From a virus (lineage: Duplodnaviria; Heunggongvirae; Uroviricota; Caudoviricetes): a stretch of 7,621 nucleotides of DNA. The notes beneath the pieces are model-generated. The model was given only the letters and a program-made list of their open reading frames with translations, had not been told where the DNA came from and made no database searches. The translations under genes and the position numbers were made by a program. The stretch's first letter is position 1. Each line of letters opens with the position of its first letter. Where the stretch lies: IMG/VR virus record IMGVR_UViG_2548877009_000008. One strand, given 5' to 3'. Shown piece by piece: positions 485-1,355 of this stretch.

Positions 485-573
485 ACGCCTCGGGCTGGCT
501 ACTTAACCCCTGACCACTGCCGGGTAACTCGAAGTATTGCCCTGCATTCTGTGAAGCGGGGTGGGTTGTAATG

Positions 574-602
574 AATATAAGAATGTTTAGTTTTGTCGTC
601 AA
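574..602 (-). promoter_or_regulatory. Sigma70-like leftward promoter (PL-like): -35 TTGACG (plus 597-602), 17-bp spacer, -10 TATATT (plus 574-579)
   Basis: Hexamers read directly on the minus strand with canonical 17-bp spacing; sits just downstream of the repressor terminator and upstream of the 79-aa ORF. Confidence 0.45.
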
Positions 603-603
603 G

Positions 604-626
604 CTGAATATAAATATTTTTAAGAT
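604..626. promoter_or_regulatory. Operator-like motif, left copy (CTGAATATAAATATTTTTAAGAT)
   Basis: About 20 of 23 positions match the motif at 1333-1355 next to the cro promoter; a shorter TGAATATAA copy at 572-580 overlaps the -10 of the leftward promoter. Confidence 0.4.
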
Positions 627-647
627 AAAAGGCCGGCAAAGCCGACC
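625..647 (-). terminator. Rho-independent terminator of the repressor gene
   Basis: Minus-strand RNA forms a GC-rich 7-bp stem (GGUCGGC/GCCGGCC, one G-U pair) with a 3-nt loop, followed by UUUUAU; lies 24 nt after the repressor stop codon. Confidence 0.5.
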
Positions 648-671
648 TCTGATTACAGGGCAAAGCGGGAA

Positions 672-1316
672 CTAGAGGCTGAACTGAACACCTTTTGCTA
701 CAGCAACGATGTTACATTCCGGTGTAAGTAAGGATGATTGATAGCGTGGGTTAAGGGGGGCTAAGTACACGAGCTTTCCATCAATAACTAATTTTTTTAT
801 AGTCATGGATGGTTCGTTTGTGAGTGGATCTGGGACTATTACTGCGACGATGCTACCATTTTTATATTTTTCGCCAGGCCTCATGATCACTGTGGCTCCA
901 ACTGGAATGCTTGGGGACCCTGATGGATTGTGCATAGTATCATCAGGCATTGAAACGGCAAAATCTCCCTCCTTGACATCAAAGAATGTGGTGATCCTGT
1001 CGACATTTCCCATAGTTTTCTCTCCTTTTAATATTAGGAAAGAAATCGCTTCTCCCCAAGAAAGGTATGGGATTTGGGTACTTGGATTTTTCTGCACAAG
1101 GGATGATTCAGGTGATGATACTCCATACAGGAGATAGGACTCAGTAGTGCCTAGTGCTAGGGCTAATTTACTAAGAGCTTTGCTACCTGGTTCGTTTAGA
1201 TCTTTCTCCCAGTATCCTATTGTTACCCCAGTTACGCCAGAAAGCTTGCCAAGTTCAACTTGGGTCAGACCTTTGTCTTTTCTGAGTTTCTTAAGCCTAA
1301 TGCCAAGGCTTTCCAT
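672..1316 (-). CDS. cI-like prophage repressor: N-terminal XRE-family HTH plus C-terminal S24 (LexA-like) autopeptidase domain
   Basis: 214-aa ORF. HTH segment LTQVELGKLSGVTGVTIGYWE; peptidase motifs AVSM (catalytic Ser) and TIKKL (catalytic Lys), same architecture as lambda cI / P22 C2. RBS GGGAGA 5 nt upstream of ATG. Transcribed divergently from cro. Confidence 0.9.
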   Translation of the reverse strand: MESLGIRLKKLRKDKGLTQVELGKLSGVTGVTIGYWEKDLNEPGSKALSKLALALGTTESYLLYGVSSPESSLVQKNPSTQIPYLSWGEAISFLILKGEKTMGNVDRITTFFDVKEGDFAVSMPDDTMHNPSGSPSIPVGATVIMRPGEKYKNGSIVAVIVPDPLTNEPSMTIKKLVIDGKLVYLAPLNPRYQSSLLTPECNIVAVAKGVQFSL

Positions 1317-1332
1317 TATTTTCTCCCGCGAA

Positions 1333-1355
1333 TTGAATATAAATTATTTTAGATT
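1333..1355. promoter_or_regulatory. Operator-like motif, right copy (TTGAATATAAATTATTTTAGATT) in the repressor-cro intergenic region
   Basis: Near-identical to the 604-626 motif. Contains AATATA, which on the minus strand is a TATATT -10 candidate for a weak repressor maintenance promoter; the region also holds the inverted repeat TTTAGATT (1348-1355) / AATCTAAA (1383-1390). Confidence 0.4.

Follow-up and report, generated by a model that had tools for sequence, protein, structure and literature searches.

The operators of phage 434, ACAA-N6-TTGT, are 14-bp dyads in which 4-bp ends contacted by a repressor of the HTH_3 type enclose six variable central base pairs. In phage lambda, three OR sites are common to the divergent promoters PR and PRM, a second cluster of sites lies at PL, and repressor and Cro compete for them. 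The immC region of phage P22 has three dyad sites between divergent repressor and cro genes and a second cluster downstream of the repressor gene over PL, and its repressor, c2, binds rotationally symmetric 18-bp sites (PMC4267663, PMC2995052) and prefers A/T-rich centres (PMC4267663). A further lambdoid switch, made up of PaaR2, YdaS, and YdaT, has been characterized in the CP-933P prophage of E. coli O157:H7 (PMC8630535, PMC9986795), where direct and inverted repeats at OR, with a matching OL, are also described.

The window, by which we mean the whole 7,621-nucleotide stretch of DNA analysed, constitutes the immunity region of a lambdoid prophage from E. coli; it encodes a repressor like P22 c2, a Cro protein belonging to the P22_Cro family, and YdaT. 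Of 5,426 complete E. coli genomes, 474 carry this immunity type, among them genomes of O157 strains. The repressor gene (672–1316, minus strand; 214 aa) encodes an N-terminal HTH_3 domain (Pfam, 8e-12) and a C-terminal Peptidase_S24 domain (1e-10), and among solved structures its N-terminal domain is closest to that of P22 c2 (1ADR, 3JXB, and 2R1J; best E = 9e-7), although the two repressors are only ~30% identical. The divergent cro-like gene (1415–1642, plus strand; 75 aa) encodes a protein that matches PF14549 (P22_Cro) at 2.6e-9, above the curated cut-off, and a P22_Cro gene is found in all 10 related loci. The analogue of cII is YdaT here, whereas it is C1 in P22. YdaT is near-identical to the crystallised CP-933P protein (8BT1), but the window is not the studied CP-933P switch, whose repressor is PaaR2 and not a protein with an S24 domain, and which has different repeats, with GTTTAGTAA half-sites in four inverted repeats.

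An initial annotation had drawn attention to near-identical 23-bp AT-rich motifs on the two sides of the repressor gene, CTGAATATAAATATTTTTAAGAT at 604–626 and TTGAATATAAATTATTTTAGATT at 1333–1355. Both sequences stand at these positions, but their likeness is lower than the 20 or so matches out of 23 that had been claimed: in the ungapped register, which preserves the N6 spacing described below, 17 of 23 positions agree, and 20 of 23 can be reached only with four gaps. The exact 11-mer TGAATATAAAT is common to both (605–615 and 1334–1344). When the two intergenic regions were shuffled with dinucleotide composition kept, the same best 23-mer identity was reached in 6 of 300 shuffles and an exact word of 11 nt in 10 of 300. 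Taken alone, the pair is therefore mildly unusual and only suggestive, with 2–3% of shuffles as good.

The two copies prove to be part of a larger set. The window contains five sites of 20 bp, each with dyad symmetry and of the general form AAT[C/A]TAA-N6-TTAGnTT (core CTAA-N6-TTAG; no strand assigned), so the two and a half copies counted initially fall short by two complete sites, OR1 and OR2. The right-hand copy is OR3 (1336–1355; AATATAA-ATTATT-TTAGATT), which lies upstream of the −35 hexamer of PR and over a putative −10 hexamer of PRM. The two overlooked sites follow it: OR2 (1361–1380; GACCTAA-AAAAAA-TTACCCT) covers the −35 hexamer and spacer of PR, and OR1 (1383–1402; AATCTAA-AAATAC-TTAGTTT) covers the PR −10 and the predicted start. 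On the other side of the repressor gene, OL1 (574–593; AATATAA-GAATGT-TTAGTTT), an exact pattern match, covers the PL −10 and spacer; the partial copy at 572–580 that had been reported to overlap the PL −10 does so and is the left end of this strong site. The left-hand copy is OL2 (607–626; AATATAA-ATATTT-TTAAGAT), a weak site upstream of the PL −35. As had been proposed, each 23-mer sits just upstream of an outward −35 hexamer, 604–626 at that of PL (TTGACG) and 1333–1355 at that of PR (TTGACC).

These promoters flank the repressor gene and point away from it. The leftward early promoter PL (574–602, minus strand) consists of TTGACG (602–597), a 17-bp spacer, and TATATT (579–574), with 10 of 12 consensus bases, and relatives carry a TTGnnn hexamer at the same distance from OL1 as the PL −35. 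The rightward early promoter of cro-ydaT, PR (1359–1387, plus strand), is read from the sequence as TTGACC (1359–1364), 17 bp, and TAATCT (1382–1387). It was missed by the promoter scan because its −10 has only three of six consensus bases; TTGAyC-17-TAnnnT is found at this position in all relatives, and one locus (L013) has TTGACC-17-TATAAT.

The pattern AATNTAA-N6-TTAR, derived after the data had been seen, has four exact matches in 7.6 kb where 0.05 would be expected, and all four fall in the intergenic DNA on either side of the repressor gene. For a scan with the window excluded, a matrix was built from 35 sites in nine distant loci whose repressors are 41–69% identical. With this matrix the starts at 1383 (OR1, 17.9 bits), 1336 (OR3, 15.6 bits), 1361 (OR2, 12.8 bits), and 574 (OL1, 12.3 bits) take the four highest ranks, in this order, among the 7,602 positions of the window, and OL2 ranks twelfth at 1.9 bits. 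A site of at least 12 bits arose in only 4 of 1,000 dinucleotide shuffles (AT-rich stretches), and two such sites in none of 1,000, compared with the four observed. The pattern used to find the distant training sites had itself first been noticed in the window, which means some pre-selection at the core of the matrix; shuffling of the OR regions addresses this point for the minimal dyad only. In the nine distant OR regions TAA-N6-TTA occurs 26 times, where 3.3 are expected and 1,000 shuffles gave at most 9, and its offsets from the repressor ATG are constant, at about 25, 50, and 73.

Conservation is concentrated in the same elements. In the relatives that are about 85% identical over the whole stretch, OR is 95% conserved, OR3 is invariant, and half-sites are kept while spacers change, as where the OL1 spacer GAATGT becomes AAGTAT. 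In every distant locus OR3 stands at the same distance from the repressor ATG, and a site at the OL1 position is present in 10 relatives. Conversely, at five loci where the same flanks enclose other immunity types, the pattern has no match and no position scores above 4.4 bits; the matrix gives 6 bits or less on P22 and HK022, with no match above 5.1 bits in P22 immC. The sites thus travel with the repressor/cro pair from locus to locus. It could be supposed that the 23-mers are a functionless chance likeness between two AT-rich intergenic regions, since some shuffles match or beat the pair and since the TGA.. and 11-mer identity beyond the half-site is lost in the 85% relatives. That supposition is scarcely credible in view of the recurrence of the same site positions at loci with repressors down to ~41% identical, the absence of shuffles with even two strong sites, and the lack of sites at loci of other immunity types. 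The OL/OR-type arrangement around the repressor gene that the initial annotation had considered is supported by the conserved half-sites, by the shared positions at distant loci, by the cross-validated matrix scan, and by the lack of sites where the immunity type is another. We conclude that the motif very probably represents the operators of the prophage's own immunity module, used by the c2-like repressor and Cro.

YdaT, an analogue of CII, had been put forward as another protein that might read the AT-rich motif. Closeness to ydaT is the one circumstance that speaks for such an assignment, and the near-identical CP-933P protein footprints on a different sequence, TTGATT-N6-AATCAA, at the ydaS/ydaT junction (PMC9986795). 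Unlike the AT-rich motif, a box at the cro/ydaT junction of the window (1632–1649, no strand assigned; ATGATT-CATGAA-AATCAA) fits that sequence, with one mismatch, and it lies where the OM site of CP-933P sits (PMC9986795). This box follows ydaT across immunity types, including to loci with a near-identical YdaT and no AT-rich motif, whereas the motif is found at seven loci (L011, L013, and L015–L019) that carry a CP76-type regulator, or none, in place of YdaT. It is thus most improbable that the motif is a YdaT site.

The copies had also been described as direct and not obviously palindromic. Each, however, carries the dyad [C/A]TAA-N6-TTA[G/A], and comparison of the matrix with its reverse complement gives a correlation of r = 0.93 across all positions and of 0.996 over the eight core positions. 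The impression of direct repeats can be traced to the better-matching or flank-constrained half of each imperfect palindrome lying on the same side. This regularity could be taken to mean true non-palindromic direct repeats, read as by the C repressor of phage P2 with one dimer across two direct half-sites, for the AATnTAA half is on the left in all five sites and the copies at OL and OR run in the same direction along the genome. Yet every site is a dyad, with a perfect CTAA-N6-TTAG in OR1 and in many of the relatives' sites, scoring these positions on the minus strand gives values almost as high, and the most similar DNA-binding domain of known structure, that of P22 c2, binds rotationally symmetric sites. 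A P2 C-type mode of reading is very unlikely on these grounds, and we treat the five sites as symmetric operators. As far as an orientation can be defined, all of them point one way, unlike in lambda, whose OL1 and OR1 mirror each other in the genome.

The layout is that of P22. The three OR sites are spaced 25 bp (OR3 to OR2) and 22 bp (OR2 to OR1) start to start, slightly more than two helical turns, compared with 25 and 23 bp in P22 and 22–24 bp for the second interval among relatives. OL1 lies between the PL hexamers in both phages, and OL1 and OL2 are 33 bp apart here and 35 bp apart in P22, with the PL −35 between them. The inner TAA and TTA of the dyad are separated by 6 bp, as in the P22 core TTAA-N6-TTAA, and the centres are A/T-rich, as preferred by the P22 repressor (PMC4267663). 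With lambda the locus shares the three OR sites common to divergent PR and PRM, the second cluster at PL, and the presumed competition between repressor and Cro, but both the type of DNA-binding domain and the sites, 17 bp long in lambda, are different. To 434 there is a resemblance in the dyad with a variable centre and the HTH_3-type repressor, with a different half-site sequence.

The operator sequence itself is not shared with P22. The half-site reads ATCTAA or ATATAA here and ATTTAAG in P22, a difference of one contacted base at P22 position 3; a change from T to C there eliminates specific binding by the P22 repressor (PMC4267663). Because that repressor is not specific for 3C sites (PMC4267663), the two phages should not share immunity. 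In the alignment, P22 Val33 has a kept equivalent, V31, whereas P22 Asn32, Ser36, and Gln37 correspond to Gly, Gly, and Tyr. The recognition-helix region GV-x-x-V-x-x-GYWEKD (G27, V28, V31, G34–D39) is essentially invariant across the repressor family, in which Cro is conserved too and the repressor linker and C-terminal domain diverge. What sets the specificity of the group apart from that of P22 seems to be mainly a single contacted base pair in each half-site, which makes the group a convenient natural case of specificity change in an HTH_3 repressor and of divergence in phage immunity.

Another difference from P22 is the number of OL sites, two rather than three. A third site, sought about 22–29 bp beyond OL1 or OL2, was not found there; a GC-rich leader occupies one side, and the terminator of the repressor gene takes the place of OL3 on the other. 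OL2 has the lowest score of the five. Its left half-site is good (5.3 bits) and its right half degenerate (−1.7 bits), and its right end (621–626) is shared with the U-tract (621–628) of that minus-strand terminator. The best second OL site lies 33–35 bp from OL1 in 8 of 11 loci and scores 12–17 bits in four of them.

Given the low score and poor right half, OL2 might be merely AT-rich promoter-upstream DNA joined to a terminator tail.

A related proposal is that OL2 and OR3 are UP elements, AT-rich sequences at about −40 to −60 that are bound by the α C-terminal domains of RNA polymerase and would strengthen PL and PR, and that they are not, or not only, repressor sites. Both are A/T-rich and centred ~49 bp upstream of the predicted PL and PR starts, and the matrix scores OL2 poorly as an operator. 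However, the same dyad occurs at three places inside promoter cores (PR −10/start, PR −35/spacer, and between the PL −35 and −10), which a UP-element role would leave unexplained, only the symmetric half-sites are conserved while the spacers vary freely and no A-tract pattern is kept, OR3 is among the strongest operator matches, and four relatives have a full-strength dyad at the OL2 position. We consider the UP-element proposal unlikely, if well short of negligible; a double role of OL2 and OR3 as operator and UP element is possible.

We propose that dimers of the c2-like repressor bind the five operators through the helix-turn-helix domain and that the P22_Cro-family Cro competes for the same five. 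Repressor at OR1 and OR2 would turn off cro-ydaT and the replication genes, and repressor at OL1, between the PL hexamers, would block PL. OL2 would be a weak auxiliary site, filled cooperatively. The predicted transcription starts lie near 567 (minus strand) for PL, 1394 (plus strand) for PR, and 1329 (minus strand) for PRM. The centre of OR2 is ~41.5 bp upstream of the predicted PRM start, a position from which bound repressor could activate PRM, and occupancy of OR3, over the PRM −10, would limit repressor synthesis.

The putative PRM −10, inferred from the sequence, is TATATT (1336–1341, minus strand). The 9-mer TTATATTCA found there is also the −10 region of PL, and TATATT or TATACT is kept at this position in L009 and L010. 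A good −35 is absent, and PRM is thus probably activator-dependent. The predicted leader of ~12 nt contains a Shine-Dalgarno sequence, GGGAGAA, whereas the P22 repressor transcript begins 4 nt before the ATG. The sole hit of the promoter scan for the repressor gene, TTTATA-17-AATAAT (1343–1315), has a −10 that runs into the start codon and was discarded for that reason.

The repressor departs from P22 c2 in its cleavage residues as well. When the protein is aligned with lambda cI, P22 c2, and LexA, the Ala-Gly cleavage site falls on A90-I91 and the Ser nucleophile on T127 (DDTM), so that the features of LexA/cI-type cleavage are missing, although the catalytic Lys (K174/K175) is kept. Distant members of the family (P0017 and P0018) retain VQAG and GDSM. 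It is conceivable, and we offer it only tentatively, that a P22-style operator layout is combined here with a repressor that no longer cleaves itself. The switch would then be flipped otherwise than by RecA-stimulated autocleavage (by an antirepressor, by YdaT/Cro dynamics, or by nothing), and OL2 and OR3, a weak pair with both centres near −49 of the outward promoters, could serve mainly in bridging OL and OR or in competition with α, not in simple occlusion.

The locus is an ordinary example of the known P22-type arrangement, and its operators are no new kind of regulatory element. The immunity group is not known to have been described experimentally, and a full-text library search with four of the operator sequences found no paper. 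A consensus and a five-site map that can be tested are now available for a group frequently met among E. coli prophages, those of O157 and other STEC strains among them.

Downstream of PL lies a conserved leader, for which a role as an RNA like HK022 put was considered and rejected, as it has no sequence similarity to HK022; it gave no significant single-sequence fold and, in nine sequences, no covariation support. An Rfam scan of the window returned sok only. The intrinsic terminator of the repressor gene, missed by the terminator scan, was recovered by folding: a hairpin with a 9-bp stem in the centroid fold (629–649, minus strand) is followed by UUUAUCUU at 628–621, and L001 and L002 retain this hairpin with some of its bases changed.

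Both 23-mers reported by the initial annotation, at 604–626 and 1333–1355, are present and lie upstream of outward promoters whose hexamers could be located: the leftward early promoter PL (TTGACG, 602–597; 17-bp spacer; TATATT, 579–574; minus strand) and the rightward early promoter PR (TTGACC, 1359–1364; 17-bp spacer; TAATCT, 1382–1387). The overlap of a third, partial copy (572–580) with the PL −10 is also borne out. PR was absent from a promoter scan because its −10 is weak; the same arrangement occurs at the equivalent place in all relatives, and in one related locus, L013, the −10 is a perfect TATAAT. 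The two copies are less alike than the claimed 20 of 23 positions, which is reached only with four gaps; ungapped identity is 17/23. Because dinucleotide shuffling of both intergenic regions gives an equal or better pair in 2–3% of trials, the pair alone is no more than suggestive. The exact 11-mer common to both, TGAATATAAAT, is not conserved in relatives with ∼85% identity and thus has no evident additional meaning.

Repeat finding revealed extra copies at 574–594 and 1383–1406, with inverted relations among the copies. When aligned in one register, each reads AAT[A/C]TAA-N6-TTA[G/A], a pattern with four exact matches in the whole window (574, 607, 1336, and 1383; 0.05 expected) and none elsewhere in it. 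The gap left in the OR region is occupied by a fifth and weaker site, GACCTAA-AAAAAA-TTAC at 1361. These putative operators around the repressor gene are designated OL1 (574–593), OL2 (607–626, the original left copy), OR3 (1336–1355, the original right copy), OR2 (1361–1380), and OR1 (1383–1402). Minus-strand matches at the same positions disclose a dyad with the full 20-bp form AATCTAA-N6-TTAGATT. The copies had been described as direct and not obviously palindromic, a description that does not hold: a weight matrix of the sites and its reverse complement show a correlation of r = 0.93 over all positions and 0.996 over the eight core positions, which makes the sites palindromes of the usual operator type. 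Their seeming direct orientation is a matter of small, context-dependent asymmetries; for example, position 18 is T, not A, in OL1 and OR3, and a T-rich run before a −35 follows both.

That matrix was built from 35 sites in nine distant loci only, with the OL2 class excluded; its training sites were located with the pattern originally seen in the window itself. Scored against a background of 74% A+T, its best four of 7,602 window positions are 1383 (17.9 bits), 1336 (15.6), 1361 (12.8), and 574 (12.3), with the fifth-ranked position at 7.7 bits. Shuffling the AT-rich stretches of the window 1,000 times produced a single site of at least 12 bits in four cases and two such sites in none.

Conservation among relatives follows the dyads. 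In an O157 prophage and phage vB_EcoM-606R7 (∼85% identity over the stretch), the half-sites are retained and the spacers altered (GAATGT to AAGTAT in OL1, ATATTT to ATTAAT or ATTGAT in OL2); the OR region is 95% conserved. A protein search yielded repressor homologues of 69–41% identity from Salmonella, Yersinia, Symbiopectobacterium, Arsenophonus, and Xenorhabdus and from sequencing-run and metagenome assemblies. In all distant loci, a P22_Cro gene lies ∼100 bp upstream of the repressor on the opposite strand, and nTAA-N6-TTAn dyads stand at three constant distances (about 20, 45, and 67–72) from the start codon of the repressor gene. Across the OR regions of the nine distant loci there are 26 copies of the minimal dyad TAA-N6-TTA, compared with a shuffle mean of 3.3 and maximum of 9. 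Distant loci with a comparable downstream region have two dyad positions, 33–35 bp apart, flanking the leftward −35. Five loci that share the window's flanks on the DUF1391 and ydaT sides and carry other repressor/cro pairs gave no pattern match and matrix scores of at most 4.4 bits; P22 and HK022 scored 6 or less.

The weakest site is OL2, which scores 1.9 bits: the left half matches well (5.3 bits), but TTAAGAT, the right half, does not (−1.7). The right end also contributes to the U-tract of the intrinsic terminator serving the repressor gene; the terminator hairpin (629–649, minus strand) lies between that gene and OL2. Despite the low score, we read OL2 as a probable weak auxiliary operator because the best second site is 33–35 bp from OL1 in 8 of 11 loci, in four of which it is a full-strength dyad (12–17 bits); we lean slightly toward its being functional in the window. 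OL2 and OR3 may have a secondary role as UP elements.

As judged from sequence, the module is best described as a P22-like switch with its own predicted specificity, P22 being the closest known system. In the annotated P22 record, OR3, OR2, and OR1 are spaced 25 and 23 bp start to start, compared with 25 and 22 bp here. In the P22 OL region the spacing is 35 bp from OL1 to OL2 and 29 bp from OL2 to OL3, and the PL −35 separates OL1 from OL2; the OL spacing here is 33 bp, and the repressor-gene terminator occupies the place of OL3. The P22 site has the form nnTTAA-N6-TTAAnn; aligned on the dyad centre, the half-sites are A-T-[C/A]-T-A-A in the window and A-T-T-T-A-A-G in P22. P22 repressor makes contacts at positions 2–7 and 12–17 and favours sites whose uncontacted centre is rich in A/T; a T-to-C substitution at position 3 abolishes its specific binding (PMC4267663). 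Val33 of P22 repressor is accommodated in the methyl cleft of TTAA (PMC2995052); the equivalent valine is retained in the window repressor, but adjacent recognition-helix residues differ.

With transcription assumed to start 7 nt beyond each −10, OR1, OR2, and OR3 are centred at about −1.5, −23.5, and −48.5 relative to PR, and OL1 and OL2 at about −16.5 and −49.5 relative to PL. Relative to a putative repressor promoter (−10 TATATT, 1341–1336, minus strand, preceding the Shine-Dalgarno GGGAGAA), OR2 and OR3 are centred at about −41.5 and −16.5. Bound to OR1, OR2, and OL1, repressor would block access by RNA polymerase. Lambda repressor activates PRM from a site placed like OR2 here, and OR2-bound repressor would occupy the equivalent position. 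Negative autoregulation could operate through OR3, and Cro presumably uses the same sites as repressor.

It had also been proposed that the AT-rich motif might bind YdaT, the CII analogue. The window YdaT is near-identical to the crystallised YdaT of the E. coli O157:H7 prophage CP-933P, which footprints TTGATT-N6-AATCAA at the ydaS/ydaT junction (PMC9986795). We reject this reading because the motif occurs without YdaT, in relatives with a CP76-type or unrecognised cII-like gene, and because a separate YdaT-type box, ATGATT-CATGAA-AATCAA (one mismatch), lies at 1632–1649, where the cro stop meets the ydaT start. This is the position of the OM site footprinted in CP-933P, and the box recurs at the equivalent junction in ydaT-carrying prophages of the same and other immunity types. 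The CP-933P switch shares YdaT with the window, but its repressor, PaaR2, and its repeats differ.

The 214-residue repressor (672–1316, minus strand) has HTH_3 and Peptidase_S24 domains. Ala90-Ile91 (about 1049–1044) aligns with the Ala-Gly of lambda cI, P22 c2, and LexA, and Thr127 (DDTM; about 938–936) with the nucleophile Ser (GDSM); the catalytic Lys is retained. Relatives down to about 50% identity likewise lack Ala-Gly and Ser, whereas the most distant, P0017 and P0018, retain VQAG and GDSM. Without a canonical cleavage site or nucleophile, SOS induction through repressor autocleavage appears doubtful.

The window corresponds to the immunity and early region of a lambdoid prophage of E. 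coli. The P22_Cro-family gene (75 residues; 1415–1642, plus strand) and the YdaT gene (1639–2064, plus strand) are followed further to the right by replication genes. A prophage adjoining potC in STEC1587 is 99.3% identical to 480–1700, and at least 80% of that stretch is found in 474 of 5,426 complete E. coli genomes, including O157 strains at ∼85% identity.

Directly downstream of PL is a highly conserved leader of ∼90 nt (about 478–570, minus-strand RNA sense) that contains CGAGUUACC...UAAGUAGCCAGCCCGAGGC and ends with a Shine-Dalgarno and the start codon at 484. Of the 5,426 genomes, 3,759 have this leader, independent of immunity type, as do Symbiopectobacterium and Arsenophonus loci and Actinobacillus and Serratia phages. 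An Rfam scan gave no family for it, covariation gave no support for an RNA structure, and identity with HK022 put was rejected for want of sequence similarity. The DUF1391 gene (245–484, minus strand; Pfam domain at residues 31–77) possibly starts earlier than usually annotated: the conserved ATG at 484, which has a GAGG Shine-Dalgarno, would give 79 rather than 50 residues. Two overlapping plus-strand ORFs in different frames (3062–3535 and 3339–3782) jointly resemble one DnaC/IstB-type helicase loader, with the IstB_IS21 match of the second limited to positions 108–208; the pattern points to a frameshift close to the Walker A region, and hence to a prophage that is defective or to an error in sequencing. 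A hok/sok toxin-antitoxin locus lies at 6690–6864 and 6802–7014 (both plus strand), with the sok RNA (Rfam RF01794, 113.8 bits) overlapping the Hok/Gef ORF.
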